A DNA stretch of 52,368 bases from a virus. The DNA lies in IMG/VR virus record IMGVR_UViG_3300045988_112980. One strand, 5' to 3'. Position numbers and translations under genes: made by a program. Under the pieces are notes generated by a model, which saw only the letters and a program-made list of their open reading frames with translations, was not told where the DNA came from and did no database searches. Below are positions 1-52,368 of the stretch, one piece after another (the stretch's first letter is position 1; each line of letters begins with the position of its first letter).

Positions 1-99
1 ATCCGCGCCACCGCCGAACAGGACACCACGTAACACTTCGCCTGAACTTGGTATGTTGGTATAGTGGTAATCACAGAAATAAGTCGTAGAACCGCCCCC
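1..99. repeat. Terminal direct repeat; 1..99 is identical to 52270..52368 (circular-closure overlap, unit length 52269 bp)
   Basis: Both ends compared base by base, exact 99/99 match. Confidence 0.95.
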
Positions 100-1332
100 G
101 ACAACATCAGGGATGATTTCGCCTCCCTCTCCGAAAATGACTGACTTCACATAAGCCTCCGTGCGGGCTTCATTGCCGACATGGGAATAACCCGTATAAT
201 TGCTGTCATTGAACTTCTCGGGGTCATCAGTGACAAAAACTTTGCTCAACCCTCCTGCGGCGGCTGACTGTATTTGAATGTTGATACCGTCCGTCCACTG
301 CCAAATATGCCCAAACGGGTTTTCGATACCACGATAACGGCACACTTTGACTTTCTTTGAAGAAGTGTCATATTCAGTGGGCATGGTATATTCTTTTTCG
401 CCTGTTCCGTTGCCGAGTTCATCCGTATAGCCACAAGGGATAAAAGGATAATAACCGTTGAACGTGTTCCATTTGCCGCTGTCAAGTGTTGTAACCCCGT
501 CTCCGAGACCGCCTTGTGCATAGCCGTTGCTGTCTTTTGCGGCGTTGTACGCCTTTTGTGAGTTGAGTGTGGCGTATTCAACGGCAAACAGCCAATAAAT
601 GTCTTTCTGAATGTCGTATGTCATACAGTTCCATTCTTTTGTTGACGGCTTTCTTTTCCGGGCGTAGGCTCGGAAGTTGGTACGTGAAATAGACGTTGCG
701 GGTCTTCCAAGTACGGAACGGTATGTGTTGTCCCAATCTGACTGATTGCCACCGCCCCTGTAATCCGCACCGTCATTCACAACTGAACATAGTTTGGTTG
801 TTGAACGCTGTACGGAAGCCTCATAAGCCGAAACGTATTTCTTCTTCACTTGATGATAGCCGGGCAGAGGGTATTCAGAGAACTTCACACGGCGTTTGTT
901 ACCCTCTGTTTCAAACTTGCGATAATACATCGGCAGTTCAACCATGACTTGCCCACGTGAGCCGTCACGGGTCTGACCCGTCCAATCCGATGGGTTGAGA
1001 TATTCAACCACGTTCCCGTTGTCATCAAGAAGACAGCCTTTCATGCGGTTGTGTACGGGTAGGGATTTATGAAGTGACATATTACCGATACGGGTAACGT
1101 CAGGGGATGATACCGTGACATCATATTCAATGCCGTACATACAGTTTTCTTCCATGTAGGGCAACATGGCTGCGAGAGCCGCTTTCTTGCTTTCCCCGTC
1201 TTCCAATACTTCACATAACAGTTTGAACGGGTTGTCGCCTGAAACGTCAGGCAGGTCACTCAATCGTTTTCCGTTTGTGAACGCTTCAATGATTTCCCTT
1301 ACTTTGTTTTCTTCATCTGTTGATAGTGCCAT
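1..1332 (-). CDS. DGR variable (target) protein 1, first 444 codons. The ORF is open at position 1 and continues across the junction to the stop at 52165 (478 aa in total)
   Basis: ATG at 1332..1330, about 30 nt after the upstream stop. The minus-strand frame is uninterrupted to position 1 (MALSTDEENKVREIIEAF...YFCDYHYTNIPSSGEVLRGVLFGGGAD). It is in frame with 52165..52368 once the 99-bp overlap is removed. It is not in the ORF track because it crosses the window edge. Confidence 0.85.
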   Translation of the reverse strand, partial: MALSTDEENKVREIIEAFTNGKRLSDLPDVSGDNPFKLLCEVLEDGESKKAALAAMLPYMEENCMYGIEYDVTVSSPDVTRIGNMSLHKSLPVHNRMKGCLLDDNGNVVEYLNPSDWTGQTRDGSRGQVMVELPMYYRKFETEGNKRRVKFSEYPLPGYHQVKKKYVSAYEASVQRSTTKLCSVVNDGADYRGGGNQSDWDNTYRSVLGRPATSISRTNFRAYARKRKPSTKEWNCMTYDIQKDIYWLFAVEYATLNSQKAYNAAKDSNGYAQGGLGDGVTTLDSGKWNTFNGYYPFIPCGYTDELGNGTGEKEYTMPTEYDTSSKKVKVCRYRGIENPFGHIWQWTDGINIQIQSAAAGGLSKVFVTDDPEKFNDSNYTGYSHVGNEARTEAYVKSVIFGEGGEIIPDVVGGGSTTYFCDYHYTNIPSSGEVLRGVLFGGGAD

Positions 1333-1364
1333 AATTTAAAAGTTTTATTTGTTGAAAAATTATT

Positions 1365-24254: not shown

Positions 24255-24541
24255 AGTTCTTTTGTCATTGAAAGAAAGTTCAGATAAAAGTCAAGGTTGC
24301 AGCTTGACAGTTCGATGTATGTTCGCCCGAACTCAGGAAACGTATGAACGGCAAAGTGGCTCTCGGAAAGCAGCCATAAAGCCGTGTAACCTTGTGGGCT
24401 GAAATGATGTTCCGTGCAACTCAGAACATTGAAACCCGCTTTACGGAGAAGTTCGTCAAACATTCCCCGCAGTGCTTTCGGGTCGGTCTCTTTGACCCAT
24501 TGGGCGTGATTCCAGATTTTTGCTTGCATGGTCTTATTCAT
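24251..24541 (-). CDS. S-adenosylmethionine decarboxylase-like pyruvoyl enzyme (short class-1 AdoMetDC/SpeH-like)
   Basis: The segment HHFSPQGYTALWLLSESHFAVHTFPEFGRTYIELSSC parallels the AdoMetDC self-cleavage core (ESH...HTWPE). The ATG at 24541 overlaps the methyltransferase stop. Confidence 0.6.
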   Translation of the reverse strand: MNKTMQAKIWNHAQWVKETDPKALRGMFDELLRKAGFNVLSCTEHHFSPQGYTALWLLSESHFAVHTFPEFGRTYIELSSCNLDFYLNFLSMTKEL

Positions 24542-26090
24542 TTTCAGTTGTTTCACTCTCAGAAGAAGTTTCAGTGGCTTCAAACTGAACCATGTCTTCT
24601 TCTGTGTACTCAATTTTCGGGTATTCTTTCTTTATGTCTTTCGGGTTGCCTTTGAAGAACACGAGAATGTGCTGGTGCGTCTTTGCGACCTTTCTTGTCT
24701 CCATATACCGGGCGGCTCTCAGGGCTGTTGAAGCGGTTTGTTCAACAAGGATGATTTCATTATACAGAAGAACGCCCGCTTCTTTGAATATCCGCTTGAT
24801 GTCGCCGCAGAAGTCATAATAAAAGCCCGTCTTCCGGTCACGGACATCGCCCACACAGATAACGGCGAAACGGTTATTTCTCAGACAGCCGACAGCCGCC
24901 GTGAAAGCGTTCTTCAATATCTGAATGAAGTCTTCATAGCTGTCCTGATTGCTTGCGTCATTCGGGAGGTCTGAATACTTTTCAAGGTCAAAATATGGAG
25001 GACAACTGAACAGCAGGTCTTGGCTCTCGGGGTTGATGTGCTTCGCCACGTTCTGACCGTCATCGCAAATGTAGCGGGCTGTCATATCAGCCACACGCTC
25101 GTTGTTCAGGCTCGCTTGCTGTTCTCTCAGTTCAATGCCCGTGAAGCTATTGCCAAGGTAAGCTGAAACAAAGCCAAAGACGCTATCGCCAGCGAAGCAG
25201 TCAAACGTCTGACAGTTCTTGAACCCGAACCAACGGCAGACGATTTCAGCCATAACGGGGTCAAGGATAGAAACGCCCTGAGCAACGATTTTCGACTGTT
25301 CCCGTTCAAGGTCTTCTTTTGGAACGTACTTTTCGATGTATTCTTTGAATGAAATACCAAGTTCTTTCCTGTGTTCACGGGTTCTTTGATACAGGTCTTT
25401 GTACTTGATTTCAAGGCTTGTCACAAGCGTATCATTACGGCTTTCTCCCATATCCCCGATGATGTCGTACCACTTCTTCTTGCGGTCTTGCCAATAGCCT
25501 TTACGGGTGTCAAGGATAGAGAACGGGGGTACGACAAAGCGGTCAAACAATGATGATTCGGGTGCGCTGTTCGGCAGGGAAGAAGAACCGTTCCTGCTTT
25601 CGCCCTCTGACTTGTCTTCCCACAGGTCTAAGCCCCAATCAACAAGTTCTTCCGTGTCCCATTCATTAGCGAGAGCGTCCATGTCCCACTCTCCATAACC
25701 CACGTTGTCTTTGATGATGAACTCCCGCTGTTCTGCTTCTGTCAGTTCAGAAGCCTTGATAACATGGGCTGTCGGTCTGTCAAGCCACTTTTCCCAATGA
25801 CTGCGTAAAAGGTCTCGTTCTGCTTCTGTCTTCTGTGCGTATCCTGAACATTCCCCAAGCCGGGTATTTATTTCAGCGGGAGACATTTCAGCGATAGCGG
25901 ACAAAGCCCGAAGACGCATATTCCCGCCAAGAACCGTGAACGTGTTGTCAACGACTATCGGGCGAAGTTCAAGCATCTTCGGGAGAATTAGAATAGACCT
26001 AATCAACTTCTCAAACTTGTCATTCTTGATTGTACGGGGATTCGCCCCGTTAACCTGAATTTGTGAAAGATGAATAGTTTCTGTTTTCAT
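24534..26090 (-). CDS. ParB-like nuclease domain fused to a DNA methyltransferase
   Basis: 518-aa ORF with an N-terminal ParB-like segment (IHLSQIQVNGANPRTI) and a catalytic FSCPPYFDLEKY (xPPY) motif. Confidence 0.7.
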   Translation of the reverse strand: MKTETIHLSQIQVNGANPRTIKNDKFEKLIRSILILPKMLELRPIVVDNTFTVLGGNMRLRALSAIAEMSPAEINTRLGECSGYAQKTEAERDLLRSHWEKWLDRPTAHVIKASELTEAEQREFIIKDNVGYGEWDMDALANEWDTEELVDWGLDLWEDKSEGESRNGSSSLPNSAPESSLFDRFVVPPFSILDTRKGYWQDRKKKWYDIIGDMGESRNDTLVTSLEIKYKDLYQRTREHRKELGISFKEYIEKYVPKEDLEREQSKIVAQGVSILDPVMAEIVCRWFGFKNCQTFDCFAGDSVFGFVSAYLGNSFTGIELREQQASLNNERVADMTARYICDDGQNVAKHINPESQDLLFSCPPYFDLEKYSDLPNDASNQDSYEDFIQILKNAFTAAVGCLRNNRFAVICVGDVRDRKTGFYYDFCGDIKRIFKEAGVLLYNEIILVEQTASTALRAARYMETRKVAKTHQHILVFFKGNPKDIKKEYPKIEYTEEDMVQFEATETSSESETTENE

Positions 26091-35110: not shown

Positions 35111-35713
35111 TCACTTGCGGATAAGACAGAAGTCTGCCCAGATGTTGATGAACTGTTTCCCGCAGTAAACGGCGAGCGTGTCGCTCTTTAAGCAAAGGCG
35201 AGAACCGAGGTACGCAACCGCAGGCGAGGGGGTGTTACTCGAGAGCGCACAGGCGAGACCCGCATAACCTGTTTGATAGTCGCCTGTTGACATTAAGCGG
35301 CGGTCTGTTTTTTCGTCTTCATCCATGTCTTTGATTTCTTTCTGAGTATAGAGCCAATACCAAGGATAATAACGCCATTCGTCCTCTGTGAATTGAGGCT
35401 CCCAGCCCTCGTTCAAGGCGGCGCAGATGATACGGAGTTTCATATAAGCGAGAATGTCTTCTTGGTCGTCAAACTCTTCATGCTTTATCCATGCGGTGTA
35501 TGCGCTTACAAACGGGTGTTCTTCTCCAAGTTCACGGCAAGCGTCTTCAAAGGTTTTCACACGTTCTGTGATGTCTTTGGGCTTGAATGTATCTTCCCCG
35601 AAAACTTTGTGCATTTCGTTCTGAACCTGTTCTTTTGAAATAGCCGGGTAATTGGTTAATACCTGATAAAGTTCCCGCAAATCGTCTCTTTTGACTTCAA
35701 TTACTTCTTTCAT
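35111..35713 (-). CDS. DGR variable (target) protein 2: a 200-aa early-region protein carrying VR2
   Basis: The C-terminal segment YAGLACALSSNTPSPAVAYLGSRLC is encoded by a 77-nt copy of TR that differs only at TR adenines. Confidence 0.75.
   Translation of the reverse strand: MKEVIEVKRDDLRELYQVLTNYPAISKEQVQNEMHKVFGEDTFKPKDITERVKTFEDACRELGEEHPFVSAYTAWIKHEEFDDQEDILAYMKLRIICAALNEGWEPQFTEDEWRYYPWYWLYTQKEIKDMDEDEKTDRRLMSTGDYQTGYAGLACALSSNTPSPAVAYLGSRLCLKSDTLAVYCGKQFINIWADFCLIRK
35174..35186 (-). other. Short hairpin GAGCG-ACA-CGCTC, 3 nt downstream of VR2
   Basis: It shares the AGCG...CGCT core with the hairpin downstream of VR1. TR has no counterpart. Confidence 0.5.
35190..35266 (-). repeat. 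DGR variable repeat 2 (VR2), homologous to TR 51571..51647
   Basis: Ungapped 77-nt alignment with 15 mismatches, all at TR adenines (15 of 21 A positions changed, 0 of 56 non-A positions). Confidence 0.8.
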
Positions 35714-35719
35714 AATGTT

Positions 35720-36628
35720 TTACTTTTTAGATGTTGATGTTTTCTTTGACTTTTCTTCTTTGATTTCCCCCGTTTCAGGGTCAACGTTGGCGGGTATCTC
35801 TCCCGTTGCTTGTGCGATAGCCGCTGCCGCCTTGTCAGCCGCCGAAGCGGTCTTTTTATTGGCTTCTTCTTGTGCTTTGGCTTCAAGTTGTGGTTTGACA
35901 AAGGTTTCCTGAACGGTTGTCGTTCCCTCTTTGATAGCGTTCCAAGTGGCTCTAAGTTCAAACAGCTTTTCTTTGTCGATTTCTGCGATAGCCTTAATAC
36001 CGAGATATTGGCAAATCATGGCTTCCGTCACACCCGCTTTTGCGAAGTTCGCCAAACAGTTCTTGCGTGATGTCTCAACGTCAATCGCCTGACCGAGCGC
36101 AACCTTTTTAACTTCATTGATGACACGTTTTGTAACGGCTTTCGGTATGACCGCCAAGACTGCGTTTCTGAAAGCGATTGAGGCGGCTGCGTTGCCTGTC
36201 ACAACCTGCATGTCGTCACTGTATGTCTTACCCGTTTTCGTTGTTATCCGGCGGTCAACGGTCTTGCAAACGGCGAAGTTTGTTTCAAGGTCATGGCAGA
36301 CAGCCTGAGCCGTGATTTTACGCCCGTCATTTCCGATGATGCGGGTCTGAACTCTCAGGTTTCCCCAAGCCCCTGCGATGATTTCTGCCATACGGATCGA
36401 AAGCCCTTCAATGGTGTTGTCATTACCGTTTGCGTCCTTTCTTCTGAGAACATAGAAGCAGTCTTCTGCCGTTTCCCTATCCATTGTGGCATAGGTGGCG
36501 ATTTTGTTCAAGACTGTGTTCAGGTCACGGGGATATTGCTTCGCCGTGGCAATCTGAATGTCAATTTCTGACCGGGTAATTCCCGCAAGCATTTCAGCTT
36601 GTTTGATTTCAATAATGTCATTTTCCAT
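35720..36628 (-). CDS. Putative single-strand annealing or recombination protein (by synteny with the YqaJ exonuclease)
   Basis: 302-aa ORF with a Lys/Glu-rich tail. I recognised no family motif. Confidence 0.3.
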   Translation of the reverse strand: MENDIIEIKQAEMLAGITRSEIDIQIATAKQYPRDLNTVLNKIATYATMDRETAEDCFYVLRRKDANGNDNTIEGLSIRMAEIIAGAWGNLRVQTRIIGNDGRKITAQAVCHDLETNFAVCKTVDRRITTKTGKTYSDDMQVVTGNAAASIAFRNAVLAVIPKAVTKRVINEVKKVALGQAIDVETSRKNCLANFAKAGVTEAMICQYLGIKAIAEIDKEKLFELRATWNAIKEGTTTVQETFVKPQLEAKAQEEANKKTASAADKAAAAIAQATGEIPANVDPETGEIKEEKSKKTSTSKK

Positions 36629-39501: not shown

Positions 39502-39930
39502 ATGGAACATCTTAGACGATTGAAAAAAGTTATAAACTGGCTTATTTTCAAGGGAATAGCGGAAAATGAAAGGGCTTTGGCTGAAACTCTGGGATATACA
39601 AAGTCTTCTTTCTCTCAGATTGTTACGGGTAAAGTGCCTCTTTCCGAGAAGTTTATGAAGCGAATTTGTTCCCTTGATGAAAATATAAACTTTGTTTGGC
39701 TTCAATCAGGCGAGGGAGAAATGTTCCTTTCTAATAATCTGAACAGTGAAGACAGCGGGGTGGCTGTTCCTAAAGATGTTTGGGAAATTATCAAGCAGCA
39801 AGCGGAAAGCCTTTCAGCCCGTGACAAACAAATAGATGAATTAATGGAAATGCTGAAAGAACAGATTCAGGAGAACAAAAAAATCAATGCCCGCCGGGAA
39901 GGGAATGCAAGCTCTGCCGTTGCCGTATAG
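39502..39930 (+). CDS. CI-type HTH repressor paralog 1
   Basis: LAETLGYTKSSFSQIVTGKVPLS is an HTH and the protein carries WLQSGEGEMF. Confidence 0.6.
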   Translation: MEHLRRLKKVINWLIFKGIAENERALAETLGYTKSSFSQIVTGKVPLSEKFMKRICSLDENINFVWLQSGEGEMFLSNNLNSEDSGVAVPKDVWEIIKQQAESLSARDKQIDELMEMLKEQIQENKKINARREGNASSAVAV

Positions 39931-39966
39931 CGGTTGTCGGGAAAAGTGTTTTCAAAATACCTAAAT

Positions 39967-40449
39967 ATGGATATGAATAGAAGACTTCAAGATATTATAA
40001 AGTATAAGACTGGCGGGAGACAGACCGCCTTTGCAGCCCTTTTGAATTGGTCGCCGCAATATCTGTCTAAACTTCTGAAAGGCGTTGATTTCGGGTTGCA
40101 ACCCGTAGTCTCAATCATTGAGGCTTTGCCCGAGATAAACGCCCGTTGGTTCTTGACGGGGCAGGGGGAAATGCTGAGTGATGAGAAACAAGCGGACTTG
40201 CGCCGTGAAGCCCTTGAACACGTTTATCAAGTCATGGAACTTGAACGCTTCATTCCCGTTATGACCCCCGATGAACTTCGCATGTTTGAACGTCAGGTCA
40301 GAGAGGGGGAGAAAGCCGATTTCAGCCCCGACACGATTCAATCATGGAGGGAACGCCTTAATGTCCGGGAGAGAGAAATTAACGTCAAATTTGCAACCGC
40401 AGCCGCAAAATCAGATGAATTATGCAGACAGAAGACAGCCAAAAGATAG
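39967..40449 (+). CDS. CI-type HTH protein paralog 2 (the ORF-track start at 39934 is TTG)
   Basis: FAALLNWSPQYLSKLLKG is an HTH and the protein carries WFLTGQGEML. Confidence 0.55.
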   Translation: MDMNRRLQDIIKYKTGGRQTAFAALLNWSPQYLSKLLKGVDFGLQPVVSIIEALPEINARWFLTGQGEMLSDEKQADLRREALEHVYQVMELERFIPVMTPDELRMFERQVREGEKADFSPDTIQSWRERLNVREREINVKFATAAAKSDELCRQKTAKR

Positions 40450-40694
40450 TACGCCGTTTTTTTGAGGCTCTTTACCGCTTGAAAGATGACGGGAAAATAA
40501 GAGGTAAGCAGACTTTTACCCGTGAGTTTGATATAAATCGCTGGAATTTGAACAAACTTGAAAAGAACTTGGCAAGTGACATTTTTCAACCCGCTTGGTT
40601 GACTTATATAGTGAAAGAATACAAGGTTTCCGCACGCTGGCTTCTGACGGGCGAGGGAGACTTCTATGAAACGAGGACAGGGGCAAAGCCATGA
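40422..40694 (+). CDS. CI-type HTH protein paralog 3
   Basis: The protein carries WLLTGEGDFY. Confidence 0.5.
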   Translation: MQTEDSQKIVRRFFEALYRLKDDGKIRGKQTFTREFDINRWNLNKLEKNLASDIFQPAWLTYIVKEYKVSARWLLTGEGDFYETRTGAKP

Positions 40695-40709
40695 GGCTGC
40701 CCCCGTCTC

Positions 40710-41876
40710 TTATTCCTTGTTGTCATCAGCCCCGAAAATATCGGGTATCATCGCAACCGCCTCCTGCTTTTTCTTATCAAGGATTTTCGCATAAATCTGT
40801 GTTGTAGAAAGCTCCTTGTGCCCGAGAAGTTTCTGAACCGTGTAAATGTCTGCGCCGAGGTCAAGCATGAGGACAGCGAATGTGTGCCGCCCTGAATGGA
40901 ACGTGATGTCTTTTGTTATTCCCGCCCTGTTTGCCCACATCCTTAACTCAGCTATCATATAGGCACTGTATTTGAAACCGACAAAAACCCGGTCATCAGG
41001 TTCACGGCGAACCCCCATGTATTGAACCGCTTGTTTATTGATGTCAAGGTATTCTTGCCCGCCCGTCTTCTTCTGTTTGAAGATTATCCGGGTAAAGTCT
41101 CCTTGCTGCTGAACTTCACGCCAACGGAGTTTCTCAATGTCTGATTTGCGAAGACCTGTCAGGCATGAGAACATGAACGCATTTTTCAAGGCTGGGTATT
41201 TGCAATGGGCAGCAGCCATCGCCTTGACTTCTTCCAAAGTCAGATAACTTCTTTCTGTTTCAGCTTGTTTGAAACCCTCAATGCCACGAAGTGGGTTATG
41301 CGGTATTATCCTGTCTTCAAATGCTTGGTTGATGCAGGCACGGAGTTTGTTGAAGTAACTGACCTTGCTGTTTTGTGAAAGCGGCTTTGTCACTTCTTCC
41401 GTTGTGATAATCTTCCGTTTGTCTCTGCAACGGGCGTTCTTGTCAAGGTGTTCACGAAAACCGATTATCCATTCAGGTGTTATGTCCTTGAATGTGGTGT
41501 TAGGCTTGCAATACCGTTCAAGGTGTTTGAGGCAGCTATACCAATTACCCCAGTTTCCCCGGCTCTCGGGGTTGCCGTGACGTTTCTCACACATAGCCCG
41601 GTAATAGTCAAGAAAGTTCGTTTCAAGTTTGTAGGCGGCGTTAAAACCGTATTCTCCGTTTTGAAGTTCAACAACCCGCTTGGCTTTTATCGCCTCGGCG
41701 AGTTGAAGCGTCTGACGGTTCTTCTCCTTATCCTTTCTGTTCGTTTCAGGGATAAGATAGAGTTTCAAGTATTCATAAGACCTTTTCCCGTTCAGGTAGA
41801 TGTCGAGGTATAACGTGATATTCCCCGAAGCGGTCTTTCTCTGTCTGAGCCTTATCGGTTCTTTCGATTTTCCCAT
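40710..41876 (-). CDS. int: Tyrosine recombinase/integrase (Bacteroidota arm-binding type)
   Basis: The sequence contains [25 protein letters not shown] and [10 protein letters not shown]...[14 protein letters not shown]. The ATG at 41876 was chosen over the extended ORF. Confidence 0.8.
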
Positions 41877-41881
41877 AATTT

Positions 41882-42227
41882 TTGTTGCTTTTGTTGCTGT
41901 TTTCGATACGAGCAACAAAATAACAACAAAAAAATAATAAAACGGGTATAATCAGAGAAAAATTTCATATCGGTTTATATGGTATGTAAAACATTGATTG
42001 ATTAACTGTTATCTATCATTGATTACACCCGTTTTGTATGCCTTTTGCTTTCCGTTTTACTTACTTCACTTTCCGATGCAAAATGTTCTTTATTTGATGT
42101 AATCTATTGATTTGTAGGGTTTTTGATGTTTTATGCGTGAGTGAGAGCAACAAAGTAGCAACAAATTTGTAAAAGCACATTTTTTTTGTGTTGTTCTCAG
42201 GTCTCAAAGATATGGATTTTGTTGCTC
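41882..42227. other. Putative attP region with clustered TTGTTGC/GCAACAA repeats and a 15-bp inverted repeat
   Basis: TTGTTGC occurs at 41882, 41892 and 42219. GCAACAA occurs at 41912, 42148 and 42158. AAACGGGTATAATCA (41940) is inverted relative to TGATTACACCCGTTT (42020). Confidence 0.4.
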
Positions 42228-49954: not shown

Positions 49955-50368
49955 TTACAGAATACCGTATTCAAGGCAGTCTGCATCCACTTGCGCTTTC
50001 AGGGTAGCACGTTCGGATAGATAGGCTTTGTATGCCTCAATCTTTGCCTTGGCTTCCTCGCTTGACTTCGCCCCTCCAATCATACCGAGGTTCGCTGCGT
50101 TGAACTCATTCACAAGTTTTTGTTCCCGGTTGTTGTCCCATTTCTCCGTGATAACTGTTTCAGTTATCTTGTTTGAAGAAAGCGGAGCCCACACGGTAAC
50201 TTCTTCACATTTCCATTGTTCCTGAACCGGGGCTTCATCGTCAGAAGCGAGTTCGCTTGGTTCAACGGTGGCGGGTTTTTCAACTTTCTGAATGTTGAAG
50301 CGGTAAACGTAACTTCCGTTTCCGACAGCCTCCAATTTGGTCGGCTGATTGTCATAAAATGCTATCAT
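49955..50368 (-). CDS. Hypothetical protein overlapping the RT stop by 17 nt
   Basis: 137-aa ORF, the last gene of the DGR transcription unit. Confidence 0.5.
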   Translation of the reverse strand: MIAFYDNQPTKLEAVGNGSYVYRFNIQKVEKPATVEPSELASDDEAPVQEQWKCEEVTVWAPLSSNKITETVITEKWDNNREQKLVNEFNAANLGMIGGAKSSEEAKAKIEAYKAYLSERATLKAQVDADCLEYGIL

Positions 50369-51419: not shown

Positions 51420-51568
51420 ACTTCTGCTTTGCTTTTCTTAGTCAGAGTTTTCGGTAGCCCATACAACAGGCGTTCCTACCAACACTTTTAGGAGGTTTGC
51501 TTGAAATCTTTTGCCAAGTGGCAAGGCTGTCATTCTTTTATTTTGTTTCATATTGTCAAAACCAATTT
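51420..51568 (-). ncRNA. TR-RT spacer (part of the DGR template RNA)
   Basis: 149-nt non-coding gap in the position of the priming spacer of characterised DGRs. Confidence 0.5.
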
Positions 51569-51685
51569 TAAAGCATAGGTGAGAACCGATGTTCGCATTC
51601 GTATTCGAGGGGGTGTTATTCGAGTTCGCATAGGCGAGACCTGCATTCGCACTGTTATTCGCGTTACCGCTGAACAGGACACCAC
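51569..51685 (-). repeat. DGR template repeat (TR)
   Basis: 117 nt, AAC/AAT-rich on the minus strand, homologous to VR1 and VR2. The 86-aa ORF-track entry here is not a gene. Confidence 0.9.
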
Positions 51686-51725
51686 AAGAATGACCCACCT
51701 TTTATTTTGTTATCTCATTGTGTTC

Positions 51726-52094
51726 TCATTCAAAATAATACCTGTTTCCGTTCCCTCTCAAAGTAACCTTTCGGGGAAACTTATTCATTTCTTTGATTTT
51801 CTTCAAGACATAAAGAATATCGGATGAACCCGTGAAAAATTTCTTGGCATCTGATTCCAAACTGTCTTTGGATGGCTTGATTTTTACAAGCGTCTGACCC
51901 TTGACACCCTTAGCCTTGCTGAACCTTGTAGGAACTTCTTCAATGAAATCAACCACCCAAAACGTGGTGTTTACGAGTTTTGATTGTATCGTTTCATCAC
52001 AATTGAAACTCCTGCTGTTTTCATCTCTCGGGATATTAAGGAAAGCGAGGCTTCCGTCATCTTCTTTTGGTATGTTGTTCATTTCTTCAATCAT
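51726..52094 (-). CDS. DGR accessory ORF in the Avd position (not recognisably Avd-like)
   Basis: 122-aa ORF between VR1 and TR with mixed charge and beta-rich-looking segments. Confidence 0.55.
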   Translation of the reverse strand: MIEEMNNIPKEDDGSLAFLNIPRDENSRSFNCDETIQSKLVNTTFWVVDFIEEVPTRFSKAKGVKGQTLVKIKPSKDSLESDAKKFFTGSSDILYVLKKIKEMNKFPRKVTLRGNGNRYYFE

Positions 52095-52158: not shown

Positions 52159-52171
52159 AGCGTGTTACGCT
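52159..52171 (-). other. Short hairpin AGCG-TAACA-CGCT, 10 nt downstream of VR1 (the stop codon is in the loop)
   Basis: It shares its core with the VR2-flanking hairpin at 35174..35186. Confidence 0.5.
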
Positions 52172-52368
52172 GGCGTGGGGATAAAGCAAAGGCGAGAACC
52201 GAAGTTCGCACCCGTATTCGAGGGGGCGTGATGCGAGCGCGCACAGGCGAGACCCGCATGCGCACCGTAATCCGCGCCACCGCCGAACAGGACACCACGT
52301 AACACTTCGCCTGAACTTGGTATGTTGGTATAGTGGTAATCACAGAAATAAGTCGTAGAACCGCCCCC
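52165..52368 (-). CDS. DGR variable protein 1, C-terminal part (52270..52368 duplicates 1..99)
   Basis: The frame GEVLRGVLFGGGADYGAHAGLACARSHHAPSNTGANFGSRLCFIPTPA ends at TAA 52167..52165. Confidence 0.85.
   Translation of the reverse strand, partial: GGGSTTYFCDYHYTNIPSSGEVLRGVLFGGGADYGAHAGLACARSHHAPSNTGANFGSRLCFIPTPA
52182..52298 (-). repeat. DGR variable repeat 1 (VR1)
   Basis: Ungapped 117-nt alignment to TR with 19 mismatches, all at TR adenines (19 of 30 A positions changed, 0 of 87 non-A positions). Confidence 0.9.
52270..52368. repeat. Terminal direct repeat, second copy (identical to 1..99)
   Basis: Exact match. Confidence 0.95.

Follow-up and report, generated by a model that had tools for sequence, protein, structure and literature searches.

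Does the single diversity-generating retroelement (DGR) of a gut phage rewrite, besides the tail-module protein that it adjoins, a second protein encoded far away among genes for DNA metabolism? The question is raised by a virus sequence of 52,368 nucleotides (nt), IMG/VR record IMGVR_UViG_3300045988_112980, which was analysed at its full length and is called the window below. On the same strand as the template repeat (TR) of the DGR, and 16.4 kb from the retroelement cassette, a gene for a 200-amino-acid (aa) protein contains a stretch that an earlier reading, made from the sequence alone, had singled out as a remote variable region (VR). We refer to this stretch as VR2, to its gene as target gene 2 and to the protein as target 2; VR1 and target gene 1 are the counterparts beside the cassette (coordinates in Table 1). 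Based on the sequence comparisons presented here, we regard VR2 as a second, active target of the single DGR of this phage with a probability of about 0.9 or higher, every sequence-level line of evidence pointing in this direction.

Evidence for active diversification of VR2

The ungapped alignment of VR2 with the TR (minus strand 35266..35190 against minus strand 51647..51571, the matched TR portion being 51571..51647) was reproduced exactly; it covers the 3' two-thirds of the TR, that is 77 nt of 115-117. All 15 mismatches are at TR adenines: the aligned portion contains 21 A and 56 non-A positions, and none of the 56 is changed. If the mismatches fell at random among the 77 sites, the probability of all 15 being on A sites would be 1.5e-11. 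The sequence-only reading had likewise given correct translations for the VR2, VR1 and TR peptides and the correct length for the open reading frame (ORF; 200 aa), and VR2 is, as it had claimed, not at the extreme C-terminus, since 25 codons follow it. Within VR1, too, every mismatch inside the repeat is at a TR adenine. A blastn search of the TR against the whole window returned VR1 and VR2 only, with no third variable region.

Relatives of this locus show that the pattern is not peculiar to one genome. A first scan of IMG/VR used the TR with N in place of each adenine and yielded 14 loci; because such a scan is biased by its own pattern, the test was repeated through protein homologues, which gave 26 related loci with 60-96% amino-acid identity. 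Their VR2 peptides read AGLAxAxSxxAPSxxxAxxGSRLC between conserved flanks. The mean entropy over the 26 genes is 1.29 bits in the 21 columns of TR adenines, 0.097 in the 56 non-A columns and 0.42 in the flanks, and nearly all of the 16 adenine sites at indices 16-57 of VR2 (counted from 0 at its 5' end) are found in three or four nucleotide states among the 26-28 relatives. Compared with its three closest relatives, the gene differs at 11-12 of the 21 A sites, at 0 of the 56 non-A sites and at 14-15 of 526 nt outside VR2. Five relatives have an identical TR, whereas the VR1 and VR2 copies all differ at adenine positions. Two protein clusters of this subfamily, built at 90% identity, comprise 3,672 and 8,164 distinct members; the 15 members sampled from each all had a different VR peptide (30/30). 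A comparison of related genomes had been proposed as a check on the claim of a genuine second, remote variable region, and the outcome was strongly positive, with variation concentrated in the TR-adenine columns.

These data bear directly on the possibility that VR2 is an inactive relic, its adenine-only pattern being a fossil. The partial representation of the TR and the position of VR2 short of the extreme C-terminus would agree with such a history; however, the A sites are different in all 26-28 relatives and in 30/30 cluster members while the flanks are about 97% identical, no non-A position has decayed in this genome, and VR2 tracks non-A changes of the TR. The last point comes from a second IMG/VR scan that used the pattern of a sister lineage. 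The TR of that lineage has C to T changes at two sites (GCTT, TTCG) and, in some contigs, AACATC changed to AATATC; these changes are present in its own VR1 and VR2, including in one contig of 84.7 kb (3300045988_153563), which shows that information flows from the TR to both variable regions. The few non-A polymorphisms seen in VR2 are such lineage-specific C/T changes. A relic is contradicted by the variation among relatives and by the tracked TR changes, and we consider it very improbable.

Recombination between DNA copies, gene conversion or a chimeric assembly could also make VR1 and VR2 alike without retrohoming from the TR, and some metagenomic relatives do have TR-context copies with VR-like tracts, in one case (L062) the tract of the neighbouring VR1, a sign that these repeats do undergo conversion or form chimeras. 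Conversion would homogenise the two regions, yet in the present genome VR1 is distinguished from VR2 by 12 A sites and by no other position, and differences solely at TR adenines are not explained by recombination. The same architecture is moreover repeated in isolated, completely sequenced phages (Versailles, LoVEphage and BT-TP2). The adenine-only differences and the isolate genomes contradict this explanation, which is even less credible than a relic; VR1 and VR2 have been diversified independently from one template and have not been copied from each other.

Two kinds of irregular copies were noted among the IMG/VR relatives. In L005, L054, L059 and L062, some copies with TR flanks and the TR 3' end carry VR-like substitutions at adenine sites, and in L062 the altered tract matches the VR1 tract of that contig exactly; such copies suggest assembly chimeras or VR1-to-TR gene conversion. 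In addition, 16 of the 120 closest protein clusters (including P0056, P0064 and P0079) are 316-318 aa long, an indel in VR2 shifting the frame into an open alternative that is read through into the downstream 103-aa gene, and locus L032 (8345..8936) has a 2-nt deletion in VR2. These indels may be DGR-generated, or they may be assembly errors in a hypervariable region.

Anatomy of the target site and a homing scheme

The diversified core of VR2 is strongly ordered. All 16 variable adenines are at codon position 1 or 2, and the variable codons are six AAY codons together with TAT, ACC, ACG and ATC; by our own calculation from these codons, the coding capacity is about 3e9 peptides without stop codons. 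Upstream of the core, TR homology stops at the nearly invariant 5' block TATGCGGGTCTCGCCT, which is presumably the zone of integration of the cDNA 3' end; joining of the cDNA at this block would explain the use of only 77 of the ~115 nt of the TR. This shortening is specific to the present lineage, VR2 having full-TR length (107-113 nt) in Versailles, LoVEphage and BT-TP2.

At the other end, VR1 and VR2 share a sequence that the TR does not have. In place of the final two TR adenines (indices 67 and 71), 28/28 VR2 and 13/13 VR1 copies have G and T, and all VR1 and VR2 copies end in CGCCTTTGCTT, the TR counterpart being CACCTATGCTT; in Versailles, LoVEphage and BT-TP2 as well, VR1 equals VR2 and both are unlike the TR at the 3' end. 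In terms of the model of Bordetella phage BPP-1, this difference would correspond to the distinction between an initiation of mutagenic homing (IMH) site and its IMH* counterpart, and would give unidirectional homing. The conservation extends beyond the repeat: a 30-nt block (35200..35171) that includes the end of VR2 and the downstream flank AAAGAGCGACACGCTCGCC is the most conserved stretch of the gene, with an entropy of 0.01 overall and 0.02 at third codon positions, and near-zero entropy at wobble positions suggests a constraint at the nucleotide level. The invariant flank contains an inverted repeat, GAGCG-ACA-CGCTC (35174..35186), and a hairpin downstream of VR2 is a candidate requirement for target recognition, for which BPP-1 depends on a downstream hairpin or cruciform. 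It tells against this part of our scheme that the inverted repeat folds no better than shuffled sequences (z = -0.04); a common downstream hairpin was not seen in the other lineages.

A bias at particular adenines was also observed. Where a TR adenine is in a C-A-G or C-A-C context, nearly all VR copies have G; the sites are 35261 (VR2 index 5) and TR positions 14, 32, 43, 71 and 105 of 51685..51571. Among them, the sole third-codon-position adenine (GCA to GCG) is G in 27/28 VR2 and 13/13 VR1 copies, and because the change is synonymous, selection at the protein level cannot explain the prevailing G.

The following steps are taken by analogy with BPP-1. The reverse transcriptase (RT) of the cassette would copy an RNA containing the TR and the RT-17 spacer, with random misincorporation opposite adenines, and the cDNA would replace VR1 beside the cassette as well as VR2 16.4 kb away. 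Homing to VR2 would be directed presumably by the IMH-like 3' end common to VR1 and VR2, possibly together with the invariant 19 nt, and would be resolved in the 16-nt 5' block, so that VR2 takes only the 3' 77 nt of the TR. Retrohoming would rewrite 10 codons of the 200-aa protein, the diversified product being helical in its N-terminal half and carrying a variable loop region towards the C-terminus, with a helix at the end.

The resemblance to BPP-1 (Brt/Avd/TR/Mtd) includes the adenine-specific transfer from TR to VR, the AAY-codon design, the RT motifs (IGxxxSQ and YADD; read in translation, IGNYLSQ and YADD here) and VR 3' ends distinct from the TR, analogous to IMH versus IMH*. There are also clear differences. 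BPP-1 has a single target adjoining its cassette, the tail-fibre tip protein Mtd, whereas the second target here is 16 kb off and non-virion; the RT is only 29% identical to Brt (over 96% of its length); the ORF in the accessory-protein position (51726..52094) has no Avd match in profile scans of Pfam, PHROGs and NCBIfam; and the GC-rich IMH with its 8-bp hairpin is not evident.

A recurrent family and its possible role

Target 2 is a full-length member of phrog_11581, a family of unknown function (E 1.1e-77; residues 3-200 match profile positions 2-195 of 200), and tblastn found homologues in LoVEphage, BI-TP1, PV4-TP1, BT-TP2 and Versailles. The three of these that were examined in full each carry a remote variable region in which all mismatches are at TR adenines: 14 over 107 nt in Versailles, 9 over 107 nt in LoVEphage and 11 over 113 nt in BT-TP2. 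Each of the three has a single TR and a VR1 in the tail-module gene adjoining the RT, and the homologous gene is likewise outside the virion module and remote from the RT cassette. The RT of this genome is only about 39% identical to that of Versailles, and an alignment of three subfamilies of target 2 has 29 invariant columns. Judging from these sequences, phrog_11581 is the family that recurs as the second DGR target in temperate phages of Bacteroidales, four unrelated lineages at least being involved. In BT-TP2 (L065, PQ571279.1; TR 40632..40749), the homologue is unannotated and split across the record ends (1..306 and the end of the record); the paper describing BT-TP2 reports only gp44, a large tail-like protein, as a DGR target.

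The family is large. Queries with the three subfamilies gave 4,152, 279 and 3,509 clusters at 90% identity, and a profile search gave 270 representatives (50% identity) at E<=1e-30 and 1,672 at E<=1e-10. Members are found in genomes of Parabacteroides, Phocaeicola and Bacteroides, and at least 7 of the 11 large contigs (45 kb or more) with the gene are among the 80 best RT-bearing contigs of an RT scan.

The phenomenon itself is already published, so that the novelty implied by the sequence-only reading was overstated. In some 'Quimbyviridae', Benler et al. 2021 (PMC8008677) found DGRs that have two variable repeats, one of them near the tail fibres; the second target is non-structural and lies among defence and counter-defence genes, and a role in phage-host conflict was suggested. 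According to Dahlman et al. 2025 (PMC12629997), four prophage species of Bacteroidota have a second VR, which is distal from the cassette and lies close to counter-defence genes; the function that they suggest is of the same kind. The LoVEphage assembly examined here, AUSP0022, is listed in their Table S3 with 2 variable regions, and its homologue of target 2 is one of their cases. We infer that LoVEphage is the Quimbyvirus of Benler et al., the descriptions matching in the four methyltransferases, the tRNA ligase and an RT split over several ORFs. Large DGR surveys are blind to remote targets because their contigs are short.

The present phage is a new lineage carrying this arrangement: no relative was found when 47 kb of the window were compared with INPHARED by megablast, the only nucleotide similarity in that database being one 153-nt match to Versailles. 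LoVEphage resembles it in having a homologous protein of the same length with the conserved motifs (~40% identity over residues 50-200), in a remote VR drawn from the single TR that also serves the tail-module VR1, and in the location of target 2 among DNA-metabolism or counter-defence genes and not among virion genes. In contrast, LoVEphage is 71 kb long (52 kb here), its RT is in split ORFs (one intact ORF here), its VR2 is on the strand opposite to the TR (the same strand here) and spans the full TR (77 of ~115 nt here), and the neighbours of its target are methyltransferases and a tRNA ligase instead of recombination and replication genes. The Bacuni phages of Bacteroides uniformis (Hedzet et al. 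2021, PMC8143477) are also siphoviruses with one cassette and two VRs, one of them distant; however, both of their targets are putative adhesins of the DUF1566/fimbrial-tip-like type, unlike the small protein of another family, without a Pfam match, described here. What is added is a clean and complete example in a new lineage and, apparently, the following: a single homologous family of small proteins that recurs as second target, in four unrelated lineages at least; the scale of this family; population and concerted-evolution evidence at the VR2 locus; and a defined minimal target, partly truncated, with its 77-nt VR, the 3' end common to both VRs and the invariant flank of 19 nt.

As the sequence-only reading had held, target gene 2 is outside the virion module, a separate module that includes the tape-measure protein, and belongs to an early operon; this operon has genes for replication and recombination and adjoins the lysogeny switch. 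A relative with an 86% identical target-2 protein is an integrated prophage beside the bacterial gene mnmE; there the order is mnmE, integrase, divergent repressors and early operon, the 200-aa gene lying 3.6 kb inside the operon, and this synteny places target gene 2 in the early DNA-metabolism part of a temperate Bacteroidales phage. The earlier account of the immediate neighbours stood only in part. The YqaJ exonuclease gene is present, but a 103-aa ORF lies between it and target gene 2, and the label of annealing protein given to the product of the upstream 302-aa ORF (35720..36628) was not supported by any library, this protein having no match in Pfam, NCBIfam or PDB and matching only phrog_3657 (unknown function).

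Structure prediction, which had been suggested as a further check, was informative for one part of the protein. Two AlphaFold2 runs, with alignments of 35 and 79 sequences, gave a mean pLDDT (predicted local distance difference test) of 63 and 68. Residues 1-100, the N-terminal half, are confidently predicted to be helical (pLDDT about 70-93), and a further helix is predicted near the C-terminus (178-196); the models did not resolve the variable region and gave no fold match. Pfam gave only a sub-threshold hit to DUF5008 (E 0.002) for target 2 and no consistent family for 79 family members; NCBIfam gave no match to the protein, and a PDB profile search none at E<=10. Foldseek against BFVD returned uncharacterised gut-phage homologues only. 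By eye, the N-terminus is without a hydrophobic segment.

Given this context, target 2 could be a soluble, early-expressed, cytoplasmic hypervariable binder in phage-host conflict, which would neutralise or engage a polymorphic host factor or defence component early in lytic growth. We favour this role over others, tentatively, and place it somewhat short of an even chance, because it is based on the position of the gene in four lineages and on absent virion or export features. Several results weigh against it. The claim of an intracellular binder is drawn only from the gene neighbourhood, from the lack of a signal-like N-terminus and from analogy, and a template common to a tail protein could equally suggest an extracellular ligand. 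No neighbour gene is conserved across the four lineages in all-against-all BLASTP, from which the gene appears to travel as a stand-alone unit, and target 2 has no match to defence-related families in PADLOC, NCBIfam or Pfam. In the AlphaFold2 models, residues 140-171, including the VR, have a pLDDT of 35-43 and the C-type lectin fold expected of DGR targets is not confirmed, and Foldseek of the target-2 model against PDB, run twice, found nothing significant. C-type lectin (CLec) domains were reported for the Quimbyvirus targets by HHpred (PMC8008677).

The template shared with the tail module also underlies the most serious rival to a cytoplasmic binder, namely that target 2 is an extracellular adhesin, virion-associated or released, whose gene simply lies outside the structural module. 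It could be a decoration factor, an accessory factor in receptor binding or a lectin freed at lysis, for example, and its diversification would serve the recognition of hosts or surfaces, as that of VR1 does. Both the TR and the reading frame are common to the tail-module target, the VR segment matches the C-terminus of the phrog_5302 'tail protein', and the Versailles homologue is annotated as a 'tail protein'. To our knowledge, moreover, the phage DGR targets understood by experiment are all receptor-binding proteins (Mtd of BPP-1, for instance), and we count this in favour of an adhesin. However, the similarity to tail proteins is confined to the ~40 residues that the TR dictates, and the Versailles label was obtained with HHpred against PHROGs and thus derives from the VR itself. 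In four unrelated phage lineages the gene is found within the early or DNA-metabolism region, and the protein has no recognisable signal peptide, fibre or anchoring domain, its N-terminal half being a helical bundle in the predicted models. We therefore consider an adhesin unlikely.

The idea of diversified ligand-binding domains acting inside the cell, in signalling or conflict, is shared with cellular DGRs. In multicellular bacteria, STAND-NTPase 'antigen sensors' have been proposed as DGR targets, and cyanobacterial DGRs reportedly have putatively intracellular targets in regulatory and signalling proteins. Those targets are bacterial, multidomain and chromosomal, whereas target 2 is a phage-encoded, stand-alone protein of 200 aa from an early operon. 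Taking the cytoplasmic binder one step further, and with more doubt, phrog_11581 might constitute a DGR-programmed intracellular 'antibody-like' system, an early cytoplasmic scaffold with a binding loop under continuous re-randomisation; the phage population would thereby always include variants able to bind a polymorphic host component and in this way to neutralise or exploit it. Its partners may include variable specificity subunits of restriction or defence systems and phase-variable Bacteroidales factors. If true, this would be the first hypervariable module for counter-defence or host takeover, present in many of the most prevalent temperate phages of the human gut.

Among gut phages, no genomic feature correlates more strongly with broad host range and high prevalence than the DGR (PMC12636319). 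This link is usually explained entirely by the diversification of tail proteins; many temperate Bacteroidales phages apply the same mutagenic machinery to a second, apparently non-virion protein, and if target 2 acts inside the cell, DGRs would contribute to host-range adaptation after entry as well. Target 2 would in that case also be a natural, compact and evolvable binding scaffold. Its function is directly testable, since three relatives (LoVEphage, Versailles and BT-TP2) are in culture.

Genome and cassette

The phage is a temperate phage of Bacteroidales from the gut. The first 99 bases of the window are identical to the last 99 (direct repeat, 1..99 and 52270..52368), which makes the contig circular with a length of 52,269 bp, and the circularly assembled genome is probably complete; because of this circularity, the ORF of target gene 1 wraps around the contig ends.

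Table 1. Features of the window that bear on the DGR and its two targets
Feature	Position	Strand	Basis or remarks
Target gene 1 (478 aa), 3' part	52165..52368	minus	phrog_5302 'tail protein'
Target gene 1, 5' part, across the circular junction	1..1335	minus	1..99 duplicate 52270..52368
VR1, C-terminus of the tail-module target protein	52184..52298	minus	blastn with TR
122-aa ORF, position of a DGR accessory protein between VR1 and TR	51726..52094	minus	phrog_19665
TR, 115-117 nt	51571..51687	minus	extent defined by VR1 52298..52184
RT-17 RNA (Rfam RF03020), spacer between TR and RT	51425..51528	minus	42.4 bits; gathering score 40.4
DGR reverse transcriptase, 355 aa	50352..51419	minus	Pfam RVT_1, phrog_1423
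Integrase	40710..41918
Two repressor-like proteins	39502..40449	plus
Leftward early operon	~39343 down to 29250		YqaJ/RecE-type exonuclease, helicase, replication initiator, primase/helicase
Target gene 2, 200 aa, VR2 near C-terminus	35111..35713	minus	ORF and profile match (phrog_11581)
VR2, 77 nt, homologous to the 3' two-thirds of TR	35190..35266	minus	15/15 mismatches at TR adenines
5' homology block TATGCGGGTCTCGCCT, 16 nt, nearly invariant	35251..35266	minus	indices 0-15 almost fixed in relatives
Diversified core, 16 TR-adenine sites in 10 codons	35209..35250	minus	polymorphism across relatives
IMH-like 3' end of VR2, TCGGTTCTCGCCTTTGCTT	35190..35208	minus	same in VR1; TR has CACCTATGC
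Invariant 19 nt downstream of VR2, AAAGAGCGACACGCTCGCC	35171..35189	minus	candidate cis element

The TR is ~150 nt upstream of the RT gene, and the RT-17 motif in the spacer may be the structured part of the DGR RNA. A 137-aa ORF (49955..50368, minus strand; phrog_11557, unknown function) overlaps the stop codon of the RT gene, and in Versailles and BT-TP2, too, an ORF of comparable length comes after the RT; this ORF may be a further component of the cassette.

Scans of the early region for promoters and terminators gave results no better than shuffled sequences, and the sigma-70 consensus does not apply to Bacteroidota. Two other elements were noted outside the cassette. A c4-2 RNA (Rfam RF02944; 33439..33520, minus strand; 62.7 bits against a gathering score of 41), which belongs to the P1/P7-type c4 antisense-RNA family, is located in the early operon, flanked by a 69-aa ORF and the helicase gene. 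A gene on the minus strand (24534..26090; phrog_498/phrog_620), situated between the regions for replication and packaging, encodes a 518-aa protein with a ParB-like nuclease domain fused to a DNA methyltransferase, which likely has an anti-restriction function.

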